Origin: Lachnospiraceae bacterium KGMB03038
GTDB taxonomy: Bacteria; Bacillota; Clostridia; Lachnospirales; Lachnospiraceae
Assembly (NCBI GenBank): GCA_007361935.1
Contig: CP041667.1
Location: forward strand, 1,350,893-1,374,892
Length of the DNA: 24,000 bases
Reading direction: 5' to 3'
Shown here: positions 4,205 through 24,000 of the stretch, in pieces
Layout: the number at the start of each line of letters is the position of its first letter
How positions within the stretch are numbered: the stretch's first letter is position 1
Position numbers and translations under genes: made by a program
The notes under the pieces: model-generated
Seen by the model: only the letters and a program-made list of their open reading frames with translations
What the model was told of the DNA's origin: nothing
Databases searched by the model: none

Positions 4205-5191
4205 ATGGAGATTGCGGCAGAAAGAGGAGAAAATTGGGCGGAAAGAACCAGTGGTCGGCAGAACAGAAAGAAAGACTGGAATCTGGCGTTTCTGGGTTTT
4301 GGAGCTGTCTTGTTCTTGCTGACAGTCAGTTATGGCATGATAAGACAGACGGAGCAGCTGATACCTTTGGATATGGGAAGGACAGGAGGAAAACAGACAC
4401 AGTTGGAAACCGATTGCCTGACAGTTATTGGAACGGCCGTACCTGACGGGAAAAGCATTGTGGAAAAGGCGGCAGTAGATAGGAGCGTATTCTTTGCGGC
4501 GCTTGGGAGTGCAGAAGAGGAAGGAAAGGGTGTTCCAGGGACTGGAAGGGCAAATATGGAGCCGGAAGGGCGCACAGAAGGCCAGACCATAAACAGGGGC
4601 TCTTCGCTGGTGGAATCCACAGCAGAAGAGAAAGAGGAGTCCCCTCCGGTTCCGGCGGAAATAGCATTGATTCTATACGGAAACGGCGGATTGCCAGAAC
4701 GTGCGGATTATATGTTTGAACCGGGAACTTTCAATTTGGAAGAGGTAGAGGGGCCAAAGCGCCTGGGTAAAATCTTTGACGGATGGTATCTGGATCCAGA
4801 GTGTACAATGCCTTTTTCCGGAAGGATGGAGGAGGGGACGGCGATAGAATTGTACGCTGGATGGAAGGAATTTCCGGGGTATATCTGTGATGAGATGGGA
4901 TATGTGATCGGCTGTTCCGATATAGGATTCGTATTAACGGATGGCTTGGTGGCGCTTCCTACCCATGAAAGCTGTGTGGGGCTCAGGGCAGGAGCGTACG
5001 CCGGGGTTGAGGAAGAAATTTTCGAGGTGTATGTGCCGGCCAATATCACAGAGATTGAAAAGGGCGCCTTTTCTTCCATGCCAAATCTACTGTTTATCCA
5101 GGTGGCGGAAGGGAATCCTGCTTATTACAGCGAGGATGGGATTTTGTATCGGAAAGATGGAAGTTTGGAAGCCATACCGCCGGGGAGATAA
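4205..5191 (+). CDS. Membrane-anchored surface protein with Listeria-Bacteroides repeat (Flg_new-like) and BspA-type LRR_5 module, paralog A
   Basis: N-terminal TM segment LAFLGFGAVLFLLTVSYGMI, then a Gly/Glu-rich linker. FDGWYLDPECTMPFSG is a Flg_new-type motif. VYVPANITEIEKGAFSSMPNLLFIQVAEGNPAYYSEDGILYRKDGS is a BspA-type LRR_5 unit. RBS AGGTGA upstream, and a TATAAT at 4176-4181. Confidence 0.7.
   Translation: MEIAAERGENWAERTSGRQNRKKDWNLAFLGFGAVLFLLTVSYGMIRQTEQLIPLDMGRTGGKQTQLETDCLTVIGTAVPDGKSIVEKAAVDRSVFFAALGSAEEEGKGVPGTGRANMEPEGRTEGQTINRGSSLVESTAEEKEESPPVPAEIALILYGNGGLPERADYMFEPGTFNLEEVEGPKRLGKIFDGWYLDPECTMPFSGRMEEGTAIELYAGWKEFPGYICDEMGYVIGCSDIGFVLTDGLVALPTHESCVGLRAGAYAGVEEEIFEVYVPANITEIEKGAFSSMPNLLFIQVAEGNPAYYSEDGILYRKDGSLEAIPPGR
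4661..5191 (+). repeat. Copy 1 of a diverged tandem duplication (C-terminal domain of paralog A)
   Basis: My hand alignment of aa 153-328 of paralog A with aa 140-316 of paralog B gives 132 identical of 176 aligned positions with no internal gaps. The DNA is visibly similar, and many of the differences are silent. Confidence 0.8.
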
Positions 5192-5255: not shown

Positions 5256-6206
5256 ATGGATATGGAAATAGTACTGGAACGTTGGAAAGTGCTGCAGGAA
5301 TCGAAAAGAGCAGAAACGTATTGGAACCGGCTGGTCTTGTGGCTGGAAATAGGGCTGTTCTGTCTTTTGGCTCATTGTATGACAGGATTTCAGACGTTTG
5401 CCCTGGAGCTTCAGCTTCCTGTATATGACCAGTGGGAGACAAAGACCGATCAAATAAATGTGCTGTCAAAGCTCCCTGAAAAGGAGAGTTTTGGAAGAAA
5501 TAAGGAGTGGATTGAGAAGGCGGTCAATTTGCCTTTGGCGGAAACGGCTGCTCCAACAGCGCGGGAAGAGGCCAGGGAACGAGCCGGCGGCCGGAAGGTT
5601 CCAGCTTCTGTGTCCGCGCTTTCAGACAGAACAATGGAAAAAGTGTCAGAGGAGCCGGCGGCTGTCACGGATATCCAGGTGATTATCCACGGAAACGGAG
5701 GACAGCCGGAGCGAACGGAACAGATTTTTGAAATTGGCACATTCAGCCTGGAAGCGTTAGAGGAGCCCAAGCGTTTGGGAAAAGCGTTTGACGGATGGTA
5801 TTTGGATCCGGAGTGCGAGATGCCGTTTTCGGGGGCTGTGCAAGAGGAAAAGGCTGTGGAATTGTATGCGGGGTGGAAGGAATTCCCCGGATATTTTTGT
5901 GACGGTACGGGGTACGTGAGCGGTTATTCGGATAGGGCGCTGGTATTGACAGATGGCTTAGTAGCGCTCCCTGCCCATGAAAGTTGTGTAGGACTGAGAG
6001 AAGGAGCATATGCGGGAATCGAGGAAGAAATATTTGAAGTGTATATTCCAGCCAATATTACAGAAATTGAGGCGGACGCGTTTTCAGCGATGCCAAATCT
6101 GCTGTTTATCCAGGCGGCGGAAGGAAATCCTTCATACTATAGTGAAAATGGGATATTGTACCATAAAGACGGAAGCTTGGCGGCGATGCCGATGGGGAGA
6201 GGTTGA
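5256..6206 (+). CDS. Membrane-anchored surface protein with Flg_new-like and LRR_5 modules, paralog B
   Basis: TM segment LVLWLEIGLFCLLAHCMTGF. C-terminal 177 aa are colinear with paralog A (FDGWYLDPECEMPFSG; VYIPANITEIEADAFSAMPNLLFIQAAEGNPSYYSENGILYHKDGS). Confidence 0.7.
   Translation: MDMEIVLERWKVLQESKRAETYWNRLVLWLEIGLFCLLAHCMTGFQTFALELQLPVYDQWETKTDQINVLSKLPEKESFGRNKEWIEKAVNLPLAETAAPTAREEARERAGGRKVPASVSALSDRTMEKVSEEPAAVTDIQVIIHGNGGQPERTEQIFEIGTFSLEALEEPKRLGKAFDGWYLDPECEMPFSGAVQEEKAVELYAGWKEFPGYFCDGTGYVSGYSDRALVLTDGLVALPAHESCVGLREGAYAGIEEEIFEVYIPANITEIEADAFSAMPNLLFIQAAEGNPSYYSENGILYHKDGSLAAMPMGRG
5673..6206 (+). repeat. Copy 2 of the diverged tandem duplication (C-terminal domain of paralog B)
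   Basis: See copy 1. The N-terminal anchor and linker regions of the two genes are not alignable by eye. Confidence 0.8.
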
Positions 6207-15060: not shown

Positions 15061-16050
15061 ATGAAGAGATGGAAATACGCGCTTCTGGTCTCTTTGTCCG
15101 CCGGAATCCTGGCGGGATGCGCGGCAGACCAGGAAGAACAGACATACGCGTACCCTTTGGCCACCGCAAGTCCGGAGGATACGGTGACGCAGATCTACGC
15201 GGAGAAATTTGCGGAAGAAGTAGACCGTTTAAGCGGCGGGCGGATTGAGATCCAGATCTATCCCAACAGTGTGCTGGGCGGAGACCGGGAACTCTTAGAG
15301 AGCTGTTACGACGGGGATATCCCCTTTGTCGTGCAGAATACGGCCCCTCAGGTCAACTTCATTCCGGATACGGCAGTTTTCGACAGCCCCTGTGTGTTTG
15401 ACAGCCTGGAGGAAGTAAGAGAGACGATCGATGAGCCGGAATTCCTGGATCTCATCCGCCGGTCCTACCGGGAAGCCGGATATGAGCTCCTTGGCTTCGC
15501 GGACCAGGGCTTTCGCGTGATGTCGACGAATCAGAAGGCGGAATCCTTCGAGGACTTTGCGGGGCAGAAGATACGGACGATGGAGAACCAGTATCATCTG
15601 GAATTCTGGAAGGCGCTGGGGGCCAATCCTACTCCGATGAATTTCAGCGAGGTTTACATCGGCCTGCAGCAGAATACGATCGATGCCCAGGAGAACCCGT
15701 ATGAAGTTATTGTGTCCAATCGGCTTTATGAACAGCAGGACTATGTGGTAGAGACGAACCATCTTCCACATCTGATCTCGCTGATCGTCAATGAGGGATT
15801 CTACGCCAGTCTTTCCGACGAGGACCAGGAGATCCTGCGAAAAGCGCAGGAGTCTGCGCAGTCATACGCGCGAGAGGCTTCCGATGAAAGGATCGCGGAA
15901 CGTATCCGGGAGATCGAGGAAAGCGGGACTCAGATCTTAAGCCTGGACGAGGAAACAAAAGCGGCGATGATCGAGGCATGCGAACCTGTCTATGAGGAGA
16001 TACGCGAGGTGGTTTCAGAAGAAATCGCGGCCGCTTATATGGGAGAGTAG
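15061..16050 (+). CDS. TRAP transporter substrate-binding lipoprotein (DctP family)
   Basis: Lipobox LAGC in MKRWKYALLVSLSAGILAGCAAD. DctP blocks KIRTMEN (carboxylate-binding Arg), ALGANPTPMNFSEVYIGLQQNTIDAQENPY. Confidence 0.9.
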   Translation: MKRWKYALLVSLSAGILAGCAADQEEQTYAYPLATASPEDTVTQIYAEKFAEEVDRLSGGRIEIQIYPNSVLGGDRELLESCYDGDIPFVVQNTAPQVNFIPDTAVFDSPCVFDSLEEVRETIDEPEFLDLIRRSYREAGYELLGFADQGFRVMSTNQKAESFEDFAGQKIRTMENQYHLEFWKALGANPTPMNFSEVYIGLQQNTIDAQENPYEVIVSNRLYEQQDYVVETNHLPHLISLIVNEGFYASLSDEDQEILRKAQESAQSYAREASDERIAERIREIEESGTQILSLDEETKAAMIEACEPVYEEIREVVSEEIAAAYMGE

Positions 16051-16070: not shown

Positions 16071-16107
16071 GGGGCACAGGAAAATCCTGTGCCCCTATTT
16101 CTTTTTT
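16071..16107 (+). terminator. Rho-independent terminator ending the ydiB-to-dctP operon
   Basis: ggggcacagg (16071-16080) is the perfect complement of cctgtgcccc (16086-16095), with loop aaaat, followed by tatttctttttt. Confidence 0.9.
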
Positions 16108-16116
16108 AAAGAAAAA

Positions 16117-16125
16117 TGGTATAAT
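16117..16125 (+). promoter_or_regulatory. Extended -10 promoter (TGgTATAAT) for the six-gene unit
   Basis: TG at 16117-16118, one nt, then a perfect TATAAT at 16120-16125. It lies just after the terminator and about 85 nt before the ATG at 16211. The -35 region is T-rich and poor. Confidence 0.5.
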
Positions 16126-16210: not shown

Positions 16211-17578
16211 ATGAAAAGAAAACGTACTTCATATAGATACTCTAGAAAACCCCAGAGGCGCAGAGGGTACATAAGCGGCGCCAGAAGACAGACCAAGCGG
16301 CGGAAGCTCTGGTTGTGCGGCTCTATTCTGGCCAGTGTGTTTCTGATCGTTCTGGCGGCGCGCTGGCTGCCTCAGACGGCGGAAGAACTGGGGAAAGAAA
16401 GGGAAAAAAATAAGACTCCCCAGACAAGAGAAGAGACAGGGAATGAAAATCCAAATATCCGGGTGCTGCTTATGACGGACGGATATCAAAATGAAACTCA
16501 TCCAAAGGCAGTACTGTCTTCAGACAGCGGGCTGGTGGTCTTCTGGGGAGACCAGGAGGAGGAAGCGGAGGGGAAACTTACGATCGAACCGGATGATGAG
16601 CGGTTTCAAAAAGGAGCGGTCCGGGTTTGGGCAAAGGAGGGAAAGGTTACGGTAGAGACCTTGAACCGGGGATATGGGACTCCTTCTTACGCGGGAGTGA
16701 TCGAACTTCGGACGACGGCGGAAGGCCTGGTGCTGATCAACGAGCTTCCTGTAGAAACCTATCTGTGCGGCGTGGTGCCAAGTGAGATGCCATCCTCCTA
16801 TGAACTGGAAGCTTTGAAAGCCCAGGCGGTGTGCGCCAGAAGCTATGCCTACCGCCAGATAGAAAGTTACGGATACCCGGAATATGAGGCTCATGTCAAT
16901 GACAGTACGGCTTATCAGGTGTATGGAAATTCAGCGCCGGCAGAAAGCGCCCAGGAGGCGGTGGAGGCCACGGCAGGAGAGACAGTGCGTTATGAGGGAA
17001 AAGTGGTGACCACCTATTATTATTCTACCTCCTGCGGTCATACAACCAGCGCAGAAGCGTGGGGGACCGCGCCAAGCAAAGAAAATGCTTATCTGCAGTC
17101 TGTGGAGGTCTGCGGGGAAAATGGCGACTATGAAAAGGATCTTCCCTGGTACCGGTGGGAAGCCAGGATTCCTGTACAGACCTTATCGAATCTGATCGGG
17201 CTGAATACAGGCACGGATATTGGAACGGTAAGTGAGATCCAGGTGACAAGACGAGGACCGGGAAATGTGGCGCTGGAGATCCAGGTGTCAGGCGAGAAAG
17301 GACGCGTCACTGTAGAGACGGAAAATAAGATCCGCAGGGCTCTTGGGGGAGAAGGCTATGAGATCACAAAGCAAGACGGATCTGTGGCCGCGAGTTCGGA
17401 ACTTCTGCCCAGCGCTTTTTTTACGATTGAGAAATCCGGGGATCTGTTTGTGATTCAAGGCGGAGGTTTTGGACATGGTATTGGGATGAGCCAGAACGGG
17501 GCGAATGAGATGGCGAAACAGGGGATGGACTATCGAAAGATCCTGACCTTGTTTTACCAGGGCGTGACCATTGAATAA
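16211..17578 (+). CDS. SpoIID/LytB-domain protein, membrane-anchored
   Basis: The track ORF starts at 15992, inside dctP and across the terminator. I call the ATG at 16211 (AAGGA 7 nt upstream). It has a basic tail plus TM (KRRKLWLCGSILASVFLIVLAA). SpoIID blocks: ETYLCGVVPSEMPSSYELEALKAQAVCARSYAY, YYYSTSCGHT, GGGFGHGIGMSQNGANEMAKQG. Confidence 0.85.
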   Translation: MKRKRTSYRYSRKPQRRRGYISGARRQTKRRKLWLCGSILASVFLIVLAARWLPQTAEELGKEREKNKTPQTREETGNENPNIRVLLMTDGYQNETHPKAVLSSDSGLVVFWGDQEEEAEGKLTIEPDDERFQKGAVRVWAKEGKVTVETLNRGYGTPSYAGVIELRTTAEGLVLINELPVETYLCGVVPSEMPSSYELEALKAQAVCARSYAYRQIESYGYPEYEAHVNDSTAYQVYGNSAPAESAQEAVEATAGETVRYEGKVVTTYYYSTSCGHTTSAEAWGTAPSKENAYLQSVEVCGENGDYEKDLPWYRWEARIPVQTLSNLIGLNTGTDIGTVSEIQVTRRGPGNVALEIQVSGEKGRVTVETENKIRRALGGEGYEITKQDGSVAASSELLPSAFFTIEKSGDLFVIQGGGFGHGIGMSQNGANEMAKQGMDYRKILTLFYQGVTIE

Positions 17579-18580
17579 ATGTACAAAAAGGATGAAGGAA
17601 CTGTGATCGAAAGAAAGACAGACATGATCATTTCTTACCCAGAGATCCATTATCAGAAAGAGAACGGCGGGATACGGATCACCGCTTGTTATGGGGAAGA
17701 TGGCCGCGTATTCCTTCCAGAGCGGATCGAAGGACAGCCGGTGACCGCTATTGGGGCGTACGCGTTTTCAGAGGGCGGGGAATCCCCGGAAGATCTGGTG
17801 TGGGGACAAGAAGGAAAGCAAGAGAAGCTGAAGGCTGAAAGGATACAGGAGCTCCATCTGCCGGACGGCGTATGCAGGATTGGCCGGTACGCCTTCTACC
17901 GCTGCCGGAATCTTGCGAAACTGACGCTGTCAGATGGGATTTTAGAAATCGGCGGCGGAGCTTTGACAGGCTGCAGGCCGGGGCAGATTGAAATCCACCT
18001 GAGGCGGGGAGAACAGTCGGCTTTAAAATCGATTTTGGACGAAGTGCGGTTCGCGATTCGGGCGACTCTTTATTATCACCGGGCAGAGGGGAAGATAGAA
18101 GTGGCGAAGGTGTTGTTCCCGGAGCACTATGAAGAGGCGGTGGAGAATACGCCGGCCCGGCTTTTATACACCAGCCACCACGGAGCGGGGGGATACTACC
18201 GTCAGTGCTTCTATGACCGGAAACTGGATTTCCCCAAATATGATGCCCTGCTTCCAAGGGCGGTAGCGGAAGAGACGCCGGAAACGGTGACGGAGCTTGC
18301 CATTCAAAGACTTTTGTTCCCGGTAGGGCTTTCTAAGAAGGCAAAGGAAGAGTACGAGACCTTTTTAAGAGAGCATGGAGGGCAGGCGGCCGCGTTTTTG
18401 GTGGACAAGGAAGAACTGGACGGGCTGCGTCTTTTAATGGATGGAGGCCTGCTGGAGGAAGCGGCTTTTGAGATCGGGATAGAGACCGCTTTAAAACAGG
18501 GGAAGACGGCGCTTGTCAGTCTTTTGATGGAGGAGAGGAGCCGCAGGTTTCCGCGGAAGAAGAAAACCTTTGAGTTTTGA
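17579..18580 (+). CDS. Cytoplasmic BspA-type leucine-rich-repeat (LRR_5-like) protein with helical C-terminal half
   Basis: The ATG directly abuts the SpoIID TAA (17576-17578). LRR_5-like units: VFLPERIEGQPVTAIGAYAFSEG and ELHLPDGVCRIGRYAFYRCRNLAKLTLSDGILEIGGGALTGC. No signal peptide or TM segment is visible. The start codon is uncertain (no clear RBS; Met16 at 17624 is an alternative). Confidence 0.6.
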   Translation: MYKKDEGTVIERKTDMIISYPEIHYQKENGGIRITACYGEDGRVFLPERIEGQPVTAIGAYAFSEGGESPEDLVWGQEGKQEKLKAERIQELHLPDGVCRIGRYAFYRCRNLAKLTLSDGILEIGGGALTGCRPGQIEIHLRRGEQSALKSILDEVRFAIRATLYYHRAEGKIEVAKVLFPEHYEEAVENTPARLLYTSHHGAGGYYRQCFYDRKLDFPKYDALLPRAVAEETPETVTELAIQRLLFPVGLSKKAKEEYETFLREHGGQAAAFLVDKEELDGLRLLMDGGLLEEAAFEIGIETALKQGKTALVSLLMEERSRRFPRKKKTFEF

Positions 18581-18611
18581 GCAAAAAGAATAGAAATTGG
18601 AGAAGATCAGC

Positions 18612-19961
18612 ATGAGAGACAGAGAGAACGATATAGTGGAACAATTGGAGCAGATCGGACGTCAGATCCTTATCGTTTCCAGAAATGAACTGTATCTTTC
18701 GATGCGATTTTTGGACGTGGCTTTAAGCAGCTTTACTTTTGTGCTGGATGAAGGGATAGGCACCATTGGAACAGACGGCTTTTCCATCTTTTACGGGCCT
18801 GCCTGGCTGGGCGGGATGTTCCGGGAGAATCCCGTCTTCGTAAACCGGGCGTATCTGCACATGGCGCTGCATGGAATCTTCCGGCATATGACCGGGAGAG
18901 GGGGAAGGCAGAAGAGATACTATGATCTGGCCTGTGATATCGCGGTGGAATCTGTGATCGATGGAATGACCTGCCGCTGTGTGCGCCAGCCCCGGTCGTT
19001 CCTTCGCAGGGAGACGTACCGGAAGCTGGAAGAGGCTATGAAGGTACTGACAGCCGGAAAGATCTGTCAATGCCTGTTGTCCTGGGATCTGTCGGAAACA
19101 AAGCTGGAACGGCTGGAAGCGGAGTTCCAGGTGGACAGCCACCTATACTGGCCGGAAGATGATCCAAAGAAGCGTCAGCAGATTGAGAATCAATGGCAGG
19201 ATATCAGCGAGAAGACCGAGATGGAAATGGAAGGGTTTTCCAGTGAAGCGTCCTCCCAGTCAGGCAATCTGGCCAAACAGATCAAGGTGGAGAACCGGCA
19301 GCGGTTTGACTATCGGAAGTTCCTGCGTAAATTCGCGGTCCTCAGGGAAGAGATGGCGGTGGATCCGGACTCCTTTGATTATGTATTCTACAGCTATGGA
19401 CTGCGGCTGTATGGAAATCTTCCATTGATCGAGCCCCAGGAGTGGAAAGAAGAAAAGAAGATCGAAGAGTTTGCGGTAGTCATCGATACTTCCATGTCCT
19501 GTTCCGGAGAACTGGTGCGCAAATTTCTGGAAGAGACTTATACCGTTCTAAGTGAAGAGAATAGTTTCTTTCGAAAGGTTAACATCCATATCATTCAGTG
19601 CGACGAAGAGATCCAGACTGATGTGACGATCACGAAGGCGAAAGATCTGGCCGCGTATATGGAGCAGTTGGAATTAAAGGGAGAAGGCGGAACAGATTTC
19701 CGGCCGGCTTTTGCCTATGTGGACAGGCTTCGTGAGGAGCAGGCATTTTCGAACCTGAAAGGCCTTATATATTTTACAGACGGGAAAGGAATCTATCCGG
19801 AGAAAATGCCGCCCTATGAAACGGCCTTTGTATTCCTGGAGGAAGATTATGAGGACAGAGAAGTTCCTCCCTGGGCGATGAAGCTGATCTTGGAGGAGGA
19901 GGATCTAGACAGAAAAGATCTGGAAGAACGAAGAAGAAAAGGAGAAGATTATGCATATTAA
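18612..19961 (+). CDS. Peptidase-like N-domain plus VWA-like domain protein (DUF2201_N/DUF2201-type architecture)
   Basis: N-terminal block GTIGTDGFSIFYGPAWL..NRAYLHMALHGIFRH resembles the putative-metallopeptidase domain, but with HMALH in place of HExxH. The C-terminal VWA has an intact MIDAS: VVIDTSMSCSG (19485-19499), GGTDF, YFTDGKG. I prefer the ATG at 18612 (GGAGA 8 nt upstream) to the TTG at 18597. Confidence 0.75.
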   Translation: MRDRENDIVEQLEQIGRQILIVSRNELYLSMRFLDVALSSFTFVLDEGIGTIGTDGFSIFYGPAWLGGMFRENPVFVNRAYLHMALHGIFRHMTGRGGRQKRYYDLACDIAVESVIDGMTCRCVRQPRSFLRRETYRKLEEAMKVLTAGKICQCLLSWDLSETKLERLEAEFQVDSHLYWPEDDPKKRQQIENQWQDISEKTEMEMEGFSSEASSQSGNLAKQIKVENRQRFDYRKFLRKFAVLREEMAVDPDSFDYVFYSYGLRLYGNLPLIEPQEWKEEKKIEEFAVVIDTSMSCSGELVRKFLEETYTVLSEENSFFRKVNIHIIQCDEEIQTDVTITKAKDLAAYMEQLELKGEGGTDFRPAFAYVDRLREEQAFSNLKGLIYFTDGKGIYPEKMPPYETAFVFLEEDYEDREVPPWAMKLILEEEDLDRKDLEERRRKGEDYAY

Positions 19962-21468
19962 ACGAGCCAAGCAGGAAATCAAAGATTCGATAGAGGCATA
20001 TCTGAAAAAGGATGCTTACGGGGAGTATGTGATCCCATCCATCCGCCAGAGACCGCTGCTCTTGATGGGGCCTCCGGGGATCGGGAAGACCCAGATCATG
20101 GAGCAGGTTGCAAGAGAATGCGGCATTGCCCTGGTTTCTTACACCATCACCCATCATACCCGGCAGAGCGCCATTGGCCTGCCGTTTATCAAGGAGCGGA
20201 TGTTTGGGGGGACCGCTTATCAGATCACTGAGTATACCATGAGCGAGATCATCGCTTCTGTATATGAGAAAATGGAGAAGACAGGATTGAAAGAGGGGAT
20301 CCTGTTCATCGACGAGATCAACTGTGTGTCGGAAACACTGGCCCCGGCTATGCTGCAGTTCCTGCAGTGCAAGACCTTTGGAAACCAGAAAGTGCCGGAA
20401 GGATGGATCATCGCGGCGGCGGGAAATCCACCGGAGTATAACCGGTCGGTCCGGGAGTTCGATGTGGTGACTCTGGACCGGATCAAGCGCATCGATGTGG
20501 AAGAAAATTATGACGTGTGGAAGGAGTACGCCTATAAGGTCGGTATCCATCCAGCCATCCTTTCTTATCTGGATCTGAAGAGAGAGCATTTCTACCGGAT
20601 GGAGACGACACCGGATGGAAAAGCGTTTGCTACGGCAAGAGGCTGGGAGGATCTTTCTGAGCTTTTGAAGGTCTATGAGTCTCTGGGAAAGAAGGTGGAC
20701 CGGGAGGTGGTCCATCAGTATATCCAGCACTGGAAGATCGCCAAGGATTTCGCGGTATACCTGGAACTTTATGAGAAATACCAGAAGGATTACGGTCTGG
20801 AAGATATTTTCAAAGGCCAGTGGGAGAAAGGAACTTTGGAGAAGCTTTCTTACGCCGCTTTTGATGAACGGCTCAGCGTGGTGGGAATGCTGTCCGGGAG
20901 ACTCCAGGAATTCTTCCGCCGGTATGGGTTCCTGGACGCCTATGTGACCCGGCTTTACGAGACGGTAAAACGGGCGCAGAAAGAGATGAAACATATGGAG
21001 CAGATATGCAGGGAGGAAGAGGAAACTTACGAGAAGCTGCGCGCGGCAGAGCAGCTTACCAGAGAAGAAGACCATCTCTGGCGGAAGGTACTGGATACCC
21101 TGGAAGACTGGAAACGGCTGGTAAAAGAGGAACATTTGTCAGGGGAAGACGCTTTGGGGCTGGTCAGGGAACGGTTTCAAAGGGAAGCATCCCGCCGCCA
21201 GGAGGCTGTGGATGAGACGGAGGAAGCGCTGGACCATGTGTTTGATTTCCTGGAAGCGGCCTTTGGAGACAGCCAGGAGATGGTGGTGTTCGTGACAGAT
21301 CTGAATACGAATGCTTACAGTATCCAGTATTTGAAAGAAAATGACTGCCCAAAGTATTACCGCTATAATAAACGGCTTCTGTTTGATGAGCAAAGAGAAG
21401 AAATACTTTCCCAGATGGATGGGGTGGAAGACAGGCTGATTGACTTAGATAGGAAGAGGGGAGTATAA
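19951..21468 (+). CDS. MoxR-like AAA+ ATPase (AAA_5 type) with long helical C-terminal extension
   Basis: Walker A LLLMGPPGIGKT (20068-20091). Walker B GILFIDEIN. Sensor and Arg-finger region IIAAAGNPPEYNRSVREFDVVTLDRIKRIDVE. Overlaps the VWA gene by 11 nt, with AAAGGAGAAG upstream. 505 aa. Confidence 0.85.
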   Translation: MHIKRAKQEIKDSIEAYLKKDAYGEYVIPSIRQRPLLLMGPPGIGKTQIMEQVARECGIALVSYTITHHTRQSAIGLPFIKERMFGGTAYQITEYTMSEIIASVYEKMEKTGLKEGILFIDEINCVSETLAPAMLQFLQCKTFGNQKVPEGWIIAAAGNPPEYNRSVREFDVVTLDRIKRIDVEENYDVWKEYAYKVGIHPAILSYLDLKREHFYRMETTPDGKAFATARGWEDLSELLKVYESLGKKVDREVVHQYIQHWKIAKDFAVYLELYEKYQKDYGLEDIFKGQWEKGTLEKLSYAAFDERLSVVGMLSGRLQEFFRRYGFLDAYVTRLYETVKRAQKEMKHMEQICREEEETYEKLRAAEQLTREEDHLWRKVLDTLEDWKRLVKEEHLSGEDALGLVRERFQREASRRQEAVDETEEALDHVFDFLEAAFGDSQEMVVFVTDLNTNAYSIQYLKENDCPKYYRYNKRLLFDEQREEILSQMDGVEDRLIDLDRKRGV

Positions 21469-21489
21469 TGGGGGAGTGAGGAATGAAAC

Positions 21490-22710
21490 ATGAAGACAAG
21501 AACCAAAATACTGCTCCTGGCGGGAGCCGGTATCCTGCTCCTTGGGATCGGGATTTTCGCGGGCTGGCATTTGAGCCGTCAGCAAAATAGCGGAGAATGG
21601 AAAGAAGAGGCAAAGAAGCAGGTAAAAGAAGAAACGGATATGACAGAGAAGCAGAAAGTCCGGGTGGAAGAGATCGGATTTTCCAGGATCTCCGGCCAGG
21701 AGATCCAGATCCAGTGGCCGGACCGGTGGGAGCCTTACGTAGAGGAATATCAGATCCAGCGGCGGAAGAGCGGAGAGGATACCTGGCAGCAGGTAGGGAC
21801 TCTGGCCTCTGATCAGAGGGTAGAGGATACGGCGCTTGCCTGGGTGGACACTCTTGAGGAAAGCGCCGTCCAGCAATATGAATACCGCGTGGATGTAAAA
21901 GTGACGGATCCAGAGAAGTATCAGGCGGAAGAAGGGAAAACGGTAATGGCCAGCAATCTTCTGGTGTGTATCGATCCGGGACATTACAGCGGGAAGAATA
22001 CGGTGGAAAGTGGAACTGCCTATGCGGAAGGGGATTTCACCCTGCAGCTTGCAAAAGAACTTTCGGGAGTTTTGAAGGAAGACTATGGGGTGACTTCTAT
22101 ATTGACGAGAGACTCCGGAAGCATTTCTATAGACGGGTATACAGATAATGCTTTGGATTCTGGCCACATCAGTCTGAGAGGGGAATACGCGGAAGGGACA
22201 GACTTGTTTCTTTCGATCCATACCAACGCAAATTTGGAAGGGGCCAATGGCTGTGAGACGGAAGAGCAGCCCATTTCTATCAATAAGCCGATTCTGATCC
22301 TGAATGAAATTGCCTGTGAGCAGGAGCAGGCGGTGAAAGTCGCAAATGGGATCGGAAGTCATCTGGCGGAAACCAGTTATCAACTGGGGATCGCGGCGGT
22401 GGGTACGTTCTGTGCCGTCGAGGAAAGCGGGCAGATCCGGGAGTGGACGGATGCTTACAATGACCAGACGGATGTGGAAGGAACGGTATGCCGCAGGAGC
22501 GGAGAACACGGAGATTATTACGGAGTGCTCAGAGGAGCCGCGAATGTGGGGGTGCCGGGGATGATCATCGAGCATGGATTCCATACAGTACCGGAAATGC
22601 GCCAGATGGCGGCGGCAGGAGAACTGGCGGGAGCCTGGGCGAGAGCAGACGCGGAAGGAATCGCGGAAGGATTTGGATTCGAGAAATATCTGGAAACAAA
22701 ACAGGAATAA
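21490..22710 (+). CDS. N-acetylmuramoyl-L-alanine amidase (Amidase_3/MurNAc-LAA), membrane-anchored, with Fn3-like spacer
   Basis: TM/signal anchor ILLLAGAGILLLGIGIFAGW. Zinc and catalytic blocks: VCIDPGHYSG, AEGDFTLQLAKEL, LFLSIHTNA, MIIEHGFHT. A large insert lies between the HTNA and EHGF blocks. Confidence 0.85.
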   Translation: MKTRTKILLLAGAGILLLGIGIFAGWHLSRQQNSGEWKEEAKKQVKEETDMTEKQKVRVEEIGFSRISGQEIQIQWPDRWEPYVEEYQIQRRKSGEDTWQQVGTLASDQRVEDTALAWVDTLEESAVQQYEYRVDVKVTDPEKYQAEEGKTVMASNLLVCIDPGHYSGKNTVESGTAYAEGDFTLQLAKELSGVLKEDYGVTSILTRDSGSISIDGYTDNALDSGHISLRGEYAEGTDLFLSIHTNANLEGANGCETEEQPISINKPILILNEIACEQEQAVKVANGIGSHLAETSYQLGIAAVGTFCAVEESGQIREWTDAYNDQTDVEGTVCRRSGEHGDYYGVLRGAANVGVPGMIIEHGFHTVPEMRQMAAAGELAGAWARADAEGIAEGFGFEKYLETKQE

Positions 22711-22729: not shown

Positions 22730-24000
22730 ATGTTTTGTGGGAATTGTGGACATAAGCTGCAGGATGACTCGATCTTTTGTCCCAATTGCGGGGCAAGGGT
22801 AGACGGGGAGGAAACGCCCGTCGGCGCGGGCCAGCCGGAAAAGGCTGTTTTGCCGAAGGCGGAGAGGAAACCGGCGGCAAAGAACAAGAATAAGAAACAT
22901 TCGAAAAAGCCGGTGATCGCAGCAGTGATCGCAGCGGCGCTTCTGGTGCTTGCGCTGGGAGGAGGAACGGTTTACGCAACGGCAGGACTGAGTATGCAAA
23001 AAGACCGGGCGCTGGACAAGATTAAGGACTGTGGATTCCCGGAATATGAAGAAGAGGCCAAAAGCGCGGCCGAGCAGTGGGATGGTTTGGGAATCTTGGA
23101 TATAGGAGAGAAACAGGATGTGATCCAGGAGTTAAAGTCTGTGCAAAAAGATCTGGACAGCTTTATTGAAGACCAGATCAAATTCTACGAAAGTGTGGAC
23201 ATGTCTGAGGCGGAAGAAGCGGAAGTTTCGTCTTATGAATCAGAGATGAAGACCATCGGGCAGCTGACCAAGAGCGATGACCGGGACTATGGGGCGATCA
23301 AAGAGGCGTTTGATAAAGTGGATGACGCCGTCTACATGTACATAGAATCGGAAAATGAATTGAACGTGGAGGTACAGCAGGTGGACGCTTCCGAATTTCC
23401 GAAGGTCCGACTGTATGTGAACGTGGAAGATCCTTCTACGGGAGAAGTGCCGGAGAATCTGGACGAAGCAATGTTCTATATCCGAAAGGAAGACGCCAAC
23501 GCGAAATTTGTCAGACAGACGGTGACAGAAGTGAACCAGCTGAACGAGGCGGAAGCCTTGAAGGTGGATATGGTGGCAGATGTGAGCGGAAGCATGAGCG
23601 GAAGCCCGCTGGACGAAGCGAAATCCATTATGAATAATTTTATTAATAGTGTGCAGTTTGATGCGGGAGACTTGGTAGAACTGACTTCCTTTGCCACGGG
23701 AGTCCGCCTGGAACAGGAATTCTGCGATGACCCCGCCCTTTTGACCCAGAAGGTGAACCAACTGGATACAGGAGATATGACCAGTCTGTACGATGCTCTT
23801 TACACAGCGGTAGAACGGGTGGCGGCCCAGACAGGAGCCAGATGTGTGATCGCCTTTACCGATGGAAACGACAACTACAGCAACTGTACTCAGGAAGACG
23901 TGATCCAGGTAGCCAACCGCTATCATGTGCCGGTGTTTATCATTGGTATCGGGTCCATTGATGCCTCTGAGATCAATTATATCGCGGAGCAGACGGGAGG
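22730..24000 (+). CDS. Zinc-ribbon / single-TM / extracytoplasmic VWA-domain protein, 3' end beyond window (absent from the ORF track)
   Basis: My own translation from the ATG at 22730 (GGAGGA 7 nt upstream) has no stop to the window end: MFCGNCGHKLQDDSIFCPNCGARVDGEE..., a Lys-rich tail, TM PVIAAVIAAALLVLALGGGTVYA, and VWA MIDAS VDMVADVSGSMSGSPL (DVSGS at 23579-23593), TSLYDAL, AFTDGNDN. 423 codons are visible. Confidence 0.8.
   Translation, partial: MFCGNCGHKLQDDSIFCPNCGARVDGEETPVGAGQPEKAVLPKAERKPAAKNKNKKHSKKPVIAAVIAAALLVLALGGGTVYATAGLSMQKDRALDKIKDCGFPEYEEEAKSAAEQWDGLGILDIGEKQDVIQELKSVQKDLDSFIEDQIKFYESVDMSEAEEAEVSSYESEMKTIGQLTKSDDRDYGAIKEAFDKVDDAVYMYIESENELNVEVQQVDASEFPKVRLYVNVEDPSTGEVPENLDEAMFYIRKEDANAKFVRQTVTEVNQLNEAEALKVDMVADVSGSMSGSPLDEAKSIMNNFINSVQFDAGDLVELTSFATGVRLEQEFCDDPALLTQKVNQLDTGDMTSLYDALYTAVERVAAQTGARCVIAFTDGNDNYSNCTQEDVIQVANRYHVPVFIIGIGSIDASEINYIAEQTG

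Follow-up and report, generated by a model that had tools for sequence, protein, structure and literature searches.

A conserved three-gene operon of Lachnospiraceae links a cytosolic leucine-rich repeat protein to a zincin-like VWA protein and a MoxR-like AAA+ ATPase, probably as a ternary remodelling machine

The stretch of DNA analyzed here (the window) comprises 24,000 nucleotides (nt) from Lachnospiraceae bacterium KGMB03038 (contig CP041667.1, positions 1,350,893 to 1,374,892), of which positions 17579–21468 carry three co-directional open reading frames (ORFs), all on the plus strand and hereafter called the trio. The first gene (17579–18580; 333 amino acids as the longest ORF) encodes a leucine-rich repeat (LRR) protein with a helical part resembling tetratricopeptide repeats (TPR), the second (18612–19961; 449 amino acids) a protein joining a zincin-like domain to a von Willebrand factor A (VWA) domain (DUF2201_N and DUF2201), and the third (19951–21468; 505 amino acids) a divergent AAA+ ATPase of the AAA_5/MoxR-like type. 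The genes are tightly linked, this linkage is conserved, and their products are cytosolic proteins that carry the predicted domains with intact ATPase and metal-ion-dependent adhesion site (MIDAS) motifs. The trio is an autonomous operon conserved in Lachnospiraceae and reaching Anaerotignum and Caproiciproducens, and the LRR protein is a genuine third component of an uncharacterized MoxR-like/VWA family, because its gene recurs in 74 of 80 loci fetched by the VWA protein and because look-ups started from LRR orthologs found the same arrangement in three of three cases. We consider it probable that the three products form one cytosolic ternary AAA+ remodelling machine, encoded by an autonomous operon across the class Clostridia (mainly Lachnospiraceae), in which the LRR protein acts as adaptor.

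Relatives were collected with a profile built only from the VWA protein and its diverse relatives, by scanning one genome per species. From at least 591 stretches encoding such a relative the best 80 were kept as loci (VWA identity 45–71%), and all ORFs of these loci were compared by phmmer and hidden Markov model (HMM) searches. A preliminary description of this DNA, made from the sequence itself, had proposed the LRR protein as client or adaptor of the other two and had named the absence of its gene beside orthologous VWA/ATPase pairs in most genomes as an observation that would speak against this. The LRR ortholog was found in 74 of the 80 loci, and in 70 it immediately precedes the VWA gene, at a distance of at most 300 nt; the ATPase was found in 76. 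Seen again in 74 of 80 species loci that were fetched independently, the arrangement is more than a product of chance. All-against-all clustering of the genes of these loci returned three shared families only (VWA in 78, AAA in 74, LRR in 70), the next one being a generic ABC ATPase present in 19 loci, and the 146 immediate neighbours of the trio spread over 149 Pfam families, the commonest of which occurred 6 times. A conserved fourth gene in these loci is excluded by both surveys. In the opposite direction, the look-ups from LRR orthologs (C. hylemonae and two members that are 28% identical in the C-terminal half) returned the order LRR-VWA-AAA in each case.

The junctions between the genes are similarly recurrent. 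An overlap of the VWA and ATPase genes is present in 31 of 77 loci (-11 in 18, -10 in 2 and -4 in 11), and the gaps between LRR and VWA genes mostly measure 5–60 nt. Where an intergenic region of its own precedes the trio, extended -10 elements are more frequent than in shuffled sequence (17 of 45 regions, against 7.0 +/- 2.4). The three genes need not be strictly contiguous, because a few species carry unrelated insertions: VanZ together with a sulfatase-family protein, MerR/MATE, M20 or M18 peptidases, and GNAT, at L019 (9304–13160), at L029, L031 and L055 between the LRR and VWA genes, and at L075 (9377–9904). As members of mutually unrelated families, the inserted genes were rejected as partners of the trio.

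This arrangement may be read mechanistically as follows. The ATPase would be the ATP-hydrolysing motor, the ring of which grips the VWA protein, and the latter would serve as bridging co-factor. The LRR/TPR-like protein would be the system-specific third subunit, most likely an adaptor, the variable LRR and helical surfaces of which would hold a predicted cytosolic client. The ligand of a MIDAS site contributes an acidic side chain, and the MIDAS metal of the VWA protein may contact E189 in an exposed acidic loop of the LRR protein. A basic-aromatic tail at the C-terminus of the LRR protein would provide a possible second contact, either to the ATPase or to the Glu-less groove of the zincin domain. 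Hydrolysis of ATP would drive the remodelling of this bound partner via the VWA protein, in the way NorQ works through NorD. The physical contacts, the adaptor role and the nature of the client we infer by analogy with such systems.

Several observations weigh against this interpretation. In five loci (L017, L026, L033, L048 and L070) an LRR gene is missing next to the trio genes despite a flank of sufficient length, L061 is without an adjacent ATPase gene (L051 is too short to judge), and the more distant part of the VWA family, beyond the best 80 of at least 591 matches, has other partners or none. The ATPase is weakly MoxR-like by sequence: it has no AAA_3 match at E <= 0.01, and its score against bpMoxR is 21, the cut-off being 27. 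When the family profile was compared with the PDB, the best match was midasin, followed by Cdc48-type proteins via the P-loop only, and NorQ, CbbQ and RavA were not among the best 60 of 106 matches. The suggested docking of the loop to the MIDAS site and of the tail to its partner derives from conservation and analogy. Finally, no client can be named, because no fourth gene is conserved.

The third subunit matches LRR_5 in Pfam (33.0 bits, cut-off 27.7), and its AlphaFold2 (AF2) model, with a predicted local distance difference test (pLDDT) of 88 and a predicted template modelling score of 0.85, resolves four parts, namely LRR region, loop, helical domain and tail. The BspA-type LRR region (residues ~20–180, positions 17636–18118) comprises some 5–6 strand-bearing repeats, delimited by LRR_5, by PDB matches and by AF2 strands at residues 22–180. 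Its phmmer matches in the PDB are 4gt6 (1.6e-15), 4fs7 and TpLRR (6mlx), and the model retrieved 6mlx, 4gt6 and 4oju in Foldseek. TpLRR, 4gt6 and 4fs7 are BspA-type LRR_5 proteins of the same repeat type, as shown by Pfam and by comparison of sequence and structure with the PDB; they are secreted or surface proteins, whereas the LRR protein of the trio is cytosolic and has a family-specific loop, helical domain and tail. That it has neither signal peptide nor transmembrane (TM) segment had been noticed from the sequence, and this reading holds: the maximum 19-residue hydropathy is 0.89, the model contains no TM helix, and no surface anchor was found. A different kind of protein is encoded in one lineage at L086 (4171–6906), where the cytosolic LRR gene of the trio is immediately preceded by the gene for a 561-amino-acid product with LRR_5 and Big_2 domains; the domain content of this product suggests a surface protein.

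The loop (residues 180–211, positions 18116–18211) has a near-invariant acidic core among orthologs, FPEHYEEAVENTPAR...HHGxGGYYRQCF, and its residues E189, A193, R194, G202, G204, Y207 and R208 are retained in the most distant members of the LRR family. The loop is exposed in the model, and its residues 186–191 form the sole internal segment of low confidence (pLDDT <50). By conservation and analogy it is a candidate site of docking, in which E189 may be the ligand of the MIDAS. A metal-binding or enzymatic function of the loop was considered and rejected, H183, E185/E186, H201 and C210 not being retained in distant members. The following helical domain (residues 218–323, positions 18230–18547) consists of AF2 helices in a TPR-like arrangement, with weak Foldseek matches to the TPR domains of FKBP51 and CHIP (E 0.2–1), and its sequence is variable (block identity among orthologs 0.21–0.42). 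The protein ends in the basic-aromatic tail RKKKTFEF (18557–18577), conserved in the family as a KKKxFEL type: the pattern [KR]x3-x-[FY]-x-[LF]-COOH fits 74 orthologs, and F331 is invariant. A profile of the C-terminal half matched solely proteins that bear LRR_5, by which alternative N-terminal domains on this module are excluded; the architecture is fixed and specific to the trio system. The LRR protein is the fastest-evolving member of the trio, combining a constant loop and tail with faster LRR and helical parts.

This distribution of constant and variable parts bears on the main rival explanation, according to which the LRR/TPR-like protein is the client and not the adaptor, being unfolded, activated or recycled via its tail or loop. 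Tail and loop are indeed its most conserved parts, no fourth conserved gene is available to serve as client, and the conserved C-terminal tail resembles the terminal recognition tags of AAA+ unfoldases, the comparison being with RRKKAI, the C-motif-2 tag of ClpX. On the other hand, repeats of the LRR and TPR-like kinds typically serve as scaffolds for ligand binding, they evolve fast here, as would be expected of an adaptor that follows a partner, and in the MoxR-class systems characterized so far it is an external target that is remodelled through the VWA protein (PMC13036017, PMC9976466). We hence regard a client role as rather unlikely, and the adaptor role as the preferred reading.

By homology the bridging protein is a member of the zincin-VWA family (DUF2201_N/DUF2201), with both Pfam models above their cut-offs (DUF2201 52.3 bits against 26.4; DUF2201_N 31.4 against 23.2). 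Its model (pLDDT 86) shows a helical N-terminal domain followed by a C-terminal VWA fold. The VWA domain (19467–19901) has an intact MIDAS formed by D292-x-S294-x-S296 (nt 19485–19499), T361 and D390, and these five residues are unchanged in 82 of 82 orthologs. Foldseek matches of this domain include integrin I-domains and the VWA domain of NorD in the NorQ complex (9qh6_G, 9qhd_G). A PDB search with the sequence of the protein gave no match, and NCBIfam has no model that matches either the LRR or the VWA protein.

The zincin-like domain contains a degenerate motif, H83-M-A-L-H87 (HMxxH; 18858–18872), in which both His residues are invariant and the catalytic Glu is replaced. Residue 84 is not Glu but Met, Ser, Leu, Gln or others in 80 of the 82 orthologs and in 44 of 44 representatives; the remaining two clostridial orthologs have Glu at the HExxH position and keep E113 as well. 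D109 and the clade-specific E113 (nt 18948–18950), located one helical turn past D109, are invariant, and the clostridial clade carries an insertion with an invariant D175-x-H177-x-x-W180. The homologs of phage EcP1, Bacillus phage G, Cupriavidus and Fulvitalea keep HExxH; these four have Asn at position 113, where the clostridial clade has Glu, so that the two positions split the family in the same way. The domain thus appears to retain its metal site and to be either a pseudo-peptidase or an enzyme with a relocated base (E113). More likely it binds rather than cleaves, since the metal ligands are kept and the canonical catalytic Glu is lost, and the site is probably non-proteolytic. The term "peptidase-like" in the preliminary description is therefore apt for the fold and the metal ligands, but not for the catalytic Glu, which is missing in the clade.

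These features also leave room for a more far-reaching proposal, in which the trio would be a cytosolic LRR-based recognition system of gut Clostridia, a bacterial analogue of LRR receptor logic. Its fast-evolving LRR/TPR protein would be the sensor of a macromolecule of foreign origin or related to stress, the ATPase and the MIDAS protein would form an energy-dependent switch, and the Glu-less zincin domain would be a peptide-capturing module or a latent protease with E113 as relocated base. We consider this improbable.

Similar pairs are encoded by phages. MoxR and metallopeptidase-vWA pairs of jumbo phages have been proposed to act as chaperone and co-chaperone (Iyer et al., 2021, PMC7824862). 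The phage pairs (homologs of N4 gp24/gp25, such as EcP1 gp33/gp34, and gp576 of Bacillus phage G) have the same DUF2201_N + DUF2201 architecture and homologous ATPases, and differ from the trio in that they keep HExxH, have Asn at position 113, lack an LRR partner and are ~22–23% identical. On these grounds the trio might be viewed as a remnant of prophage morphogenesis or replication genes related to N4 gp24/gp25, without function for the host. The PHROG matches are strong (2e-35 for the VWA protein with phrog_1314 and 4e-41 for the ATPase with phrog_1297), the VWA protein has full-length, two-domain structural matches to phage metallopeptidase-VWA proteins in BFVD (E ~1e-17), and the N4-like phage EcP1 carries the pair. 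Yet the identity to the phage proteins is low, the gene order differs (ATPase then VWA in EcP1, VWA then ATPase in the trio), no phage genes flank the trio in the 80 loci, all functional motifs are kept across divergent Clostridia, and the phage versions retain the HExxH that the clade has lost and have no LRR partner. A prophage remnant is scarcely credible in the light of these data.

The motor of the proposed machine matches AAA_5 (28.0 bits, cut-off 22) and the generic AAA family (38.2 against 21.2). LRR_5, DUF2201_N, DUF2201 and AAA_5, the domains that had been predicted from the sequence, were thus all recovered above their curated cut-offs. The assignment of the ATPase to MoxR is tentative: AAA_5 exceeds its cut-off, but AAA_3 is not matched and bpMoxR stays below threshold. 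The N-terminal ~300 amino acids are the most conserved part of the whole system (block identity 0.56–0.94), whereas the C-terminal ~200 are variable and helical. Walker A (G40–T47, nt 20068–20091) and Walker B (D121–E122, within nt 20299–20316) are both present, and no variation occurs in any of 78 sequences at G40, G43, G45, K46, T47, D121-E122, the sensor-1 residue N159 or R177.

Among known systems, NorQ/NorD, which inserts FeB into nitric oxide reductase, likewise combines an AAA+ motor with an adjacently encoded VWA/MIDAS partner, and the structural match to the VWA domain of NorD makes the NorQD mechanism a suitable template. NorD differs in having no zincin-like domain, the client of NorQ/NorD (cNOR) is known, and an LRR third subunit is absent. 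In NorQD a finger of the VWA domain enters the AAA+ pore, and the C-terminus of NorD contacts the ATPase (PMC13036017). BchI/BchD/BchH, CobS/CobT/CobN and CbbQ/CbbO-Rubisco follow a common logic of motor, VWA/MIDAS bridge and substrate-carrying third protein. The third subunit in these systems is a large catalytic or substrate protein and not an LRR/TPR scaffold, and they have no zincin domain. Phage CobS/CobT-like proteins occur among the weaker matches to the trio proteins. Rea1/Midasin is the best PDB profile match of the ATPase, restricted to the P-loop region, and unlike the trio it is a eukaryotic single-chain giant of ribosome biogenesis. There the MIDAS domain engages a conserved Glu that the ligand presents on an exposed loop, and this interaction served as the model for the role suggested for E189. 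In the literature library searched, no publication on the clostridial trio was found.

A conceptual parallel is offered by the ternary MoxR-vWA conflict systems, which comprise VMAP, iSTAND, FtsH and beta-propeller types (Kaur et al., 2020, PMC7159879). They likewise consist of a MoxR-like ATPase, a vWA protein and a third protein that joins a constant element to variable non-enzymatic modules, and the peptidase domains of their vWA proteins are often inactive too. The trio may be considered as such a system for anti-phage defence or programmed death, the LRR protein being the sensor of the invader and the zincin domain an effector or decoy. The existence of ternary systems with a distinctive third component and often-inactive vWA peptidase domains (PMC7159879) speaks for it, as do the faster evolution of the LRR component relative to the other two and the homologous pairs in phages. 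However, the third protein of the trio matches LRR_5 only, its model being an LRR with a helical repeat and not VMAP-C or iSTAND, and the trio has no VMAP, iSTAND, FtsH or beta-propeller component. In PADLOC no model matches the LRR or VWA protein, and the ATPase has only weak IetA and mad8 matches at the level of the P-loop; the bpMoxR score is below cut-off. The architecture is fixed, with 82 VWA orthologs aligning over their full length and without variable effector domains. The hosts are unicellular gut Clostridia, the context is not mobile, and the neighbours are assorted housekeeping genes rather than defence islands or mobile elements. Furthermore, the matches are taxonomically coherent, consistent with vertical descent, and the upstream elements are extended -10 promoters of the housekeeping type. 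A conflict system appears distinctly improbable, and an uncharacterized protein-remodelling machine of a housekeeping MoxR-like/VWA ternary type, with the LRR protein as adaptor or possibly client, remains most likely.

To our knowledge, MoxR-like ATPases with VWA partners are widespread, and clients are known for a handful of them, namely nitric oxide reductase, Rubisco, CO dehydrogenase and chelatases. The trio adds a well-defined three-part version of these systems, conserved across abundant Lachnospiraceae of the human gut (Dorea, Blautia, Anaerostipes, Coprococcus, Mediterraneibacter and C. scindens). The cytosolic LRR/TPR subunit provides an experimental handle as bait for pulling down the client, and loop, tail and MIDAS are precise targets for mutation. 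In addition, the trio represents a natural case of a zincin in which the metal ligands are kept and the catalytic Glu is lost or moved, and a rare example of a BspA-type LRR inside the cell.

Some distant relatives of the VWA/ATPase pair have different third genes. On plasmid pFA5 of Fulvitalea axinellae, a member of the Bacteroidota (L091, 4779–10208), a DUF2201_N/DUF2201 protein with intact HExxH is followed by an AAA_5 ATPase and a 927-amino-acid protein whose LRRs are of the classical kind (LRR_14, 1.8e-24). This may hint at repeated, independent recruitment of LRR partners, Fulvitalea being a single case (n=1); a metagenome scan with the Fulvitalea VWA protein returned no relatives. On a plasmid of Cupriavidus taiwanensis (L090, 2930–6152) the order is ATPase, a 305-amino-acid DUF3150-like protein (weak match) and zincin-VWA protein. 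This set, found on conjugative proteobacterial plasmids, is by homology a different three-gene variant of the same superfamily.

With respect to the gene starts, the VWA gene has an alternative TTG at 18597, yielding 454 amino acids; ATG 18612 is most likely the start, because GGAGAAG is located 7 nt upstream of it. The LRR start is ambiguous, with ATG 17579, GTG 17603 and ATG 17624 all being candidates. The upstream SpoIID-like ORF ends with TAA at 17576–17578, so an ATG does lie on the very next nucleotide, as the preliminary description had pointed out. In close relatives of the same synteny, however, the LRR gene is called 13–18 nt past the SpoIID stop, with a product of 300–324 amino acids; P0002, which is the nearest ortholog, has its first residue where the protein in the window has M16 (ATG 17624); and residues 1–15 are unstructured or disordered in the predicted model. 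For these reasons the directly abutting ATG is probably not the true start, and the abutment is lineage-specific. The 11-nt overlap of the VWA stop and ATPase start was read as described, at 19951–19961 (ATGCATATTAA): the VWA TAA at 19959–19961 falls inside the ATPase ORF, whose ATG is 19951, an arrangement typical of translational coupling. The preliminary description took both junctions as signs of stoichiometric co-production; in this respect the abutment to SpoIID says nothing general, and the VWA/ATPase overlap does recur in other loci.

The location of the trio in the cytosol was deduced from hydropathy. The best 19-residue Kyte-Doolittle scores are 0.89 (LRR), 1.43 (VWA) and 1.20 (ATPase), without TM segments, against 2.1–2.5 and one TM segment each in the anchored neighbours (SpoIID-like protein, amidase and zinc-ribbon/VWA protein). 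By this measure the trio is a set of cytosolic proteins encoded between envelope proteins.

The local transcription unit begins upstream of the trio; its features given here lie on the plus strand. An intrinsic terminator-like hairpin with an 11-bp stem (8 G-C pairs) and a T-run follows the TRAP dctP gene (16071–16105) and marks the predicted upstream edge of this unit. An extended -10 promoter-like element, TGGTATAAT, is found at 16117–16125; it was read directly as a perfect match and is absent from the list of a two-hexamer promoter scan. It is likely a promoter for the SpoIID-like gene and the trio in the source organism. The SpoIID/LytB-domain protein with one N-terminal TM segment (16211–17578) matches Pfam SpoIID (1.4e-27) and TIGR02669 (2e-60), and its score of 145 against the spore_II_D equivalog is under the cut-off of 234.75. 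The listed 528-amino-acid SpoIID ORF begins at 15992, within dctP. Its start is probably ATG 16211, because an ORF from 15992 would overlap dctP, the terminator and the TGGTATAAT element. Since a terminator scan between this gene and the trio found none, the SpoIID-like gene and the trio likely form a single four-gene transcript in the source organism.

Downstream, a strong sigma-70-like site (TTGACT-18-TATAAT, 11 of 12 matches; 21440–21469) lies at the 3' end of the ATPase gene and upstream of the gene for a TM-anchored N-acetylmuramoyl-L-alanine amidase of the Amidase_3 family (21490–22710), both on the plus strand. After the amidase gene, a second and unrelated VWA protein is encoded (22730–24000, continuing past the end of the window), in which a zinc ribbon at the N-terminus and a single TM segment are combined with a VWA domain on the extracytoplasmic side; the full 615-amino-acid protein found at the same position in close relatives also has a TcaA_5th domain. 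In relatives with VWA proteins 84% and 76% identical, the order SpoIID-like, LRR, VWA, AAA, Amidase_3, zinc-ribbon/VWA is kept.

This neighbourhood may suggest a role of the trio in sporulation or in remodelling of the cell wall, shared with the SpoIID-like lytic transglycosylase and the Amidase_3 protein encoded on its flanks, for instance by assembling or regulating these hydrolases from the cytoplasmic side. Close relatives keep the gene order with tiny gaps, no terminator separates the SpoIID-like gene, the trio, the amidase gene and the zinc-ribbon/VWA gene, and in C. hylemonae a GH25 muramidase gene lies two genes downstream. Against this, SpoIID and amidase homologs were found in 0 of the 80 species-level loci, which rules them out as general partners of the trio, and cell-wall families are not enriched among the 146 neighbours. 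In addition, the SpoIID-like protein stays below the sporulation equivalog cut-off and its gene is located behind an extended -10 element of vegetative type, and the trio is cytosolic whereas the hydrolase domains are extracytoplasmic. The SpoIID-like and amidase genes are lineage-specific neighbours outside the conserved module, and a dedicated function of the trio in the cell wall or in sporulation is highly doubtful.

A few further loci and genes may be mentioned. A DUF3783 protein of ~150 amino acids is encoded directly upstream of the VWA gene at L033 (7540–7989), L048 (7456–7923) and L041 (5614–6060). As a replacement of the LRR protein in L033 and L048 it was rejected, because it coexists with an LRR gene in L041. 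At L030, a contig labelled as a metagenome-assembled genome of Bacteroides thetaiotaomicron carries a typical Lachnospiraceae-like trio (55% VWA identity); the public record has probably been binned wrongly. Elsewhere in the window, two tandem paralogs at 4205–5191 and 5256–6206 had been taken for anchored BspA-type LRR proteins. The anchors are confirmed, with one N-terminal TM segment on each, but LRR_5 is not matched in Pfam and the matches to Flg_new (Listeria-Bacteroides repeat) are weak and below cut-off; the C-terminal ~60 residues resemble a single BspA-type unit.

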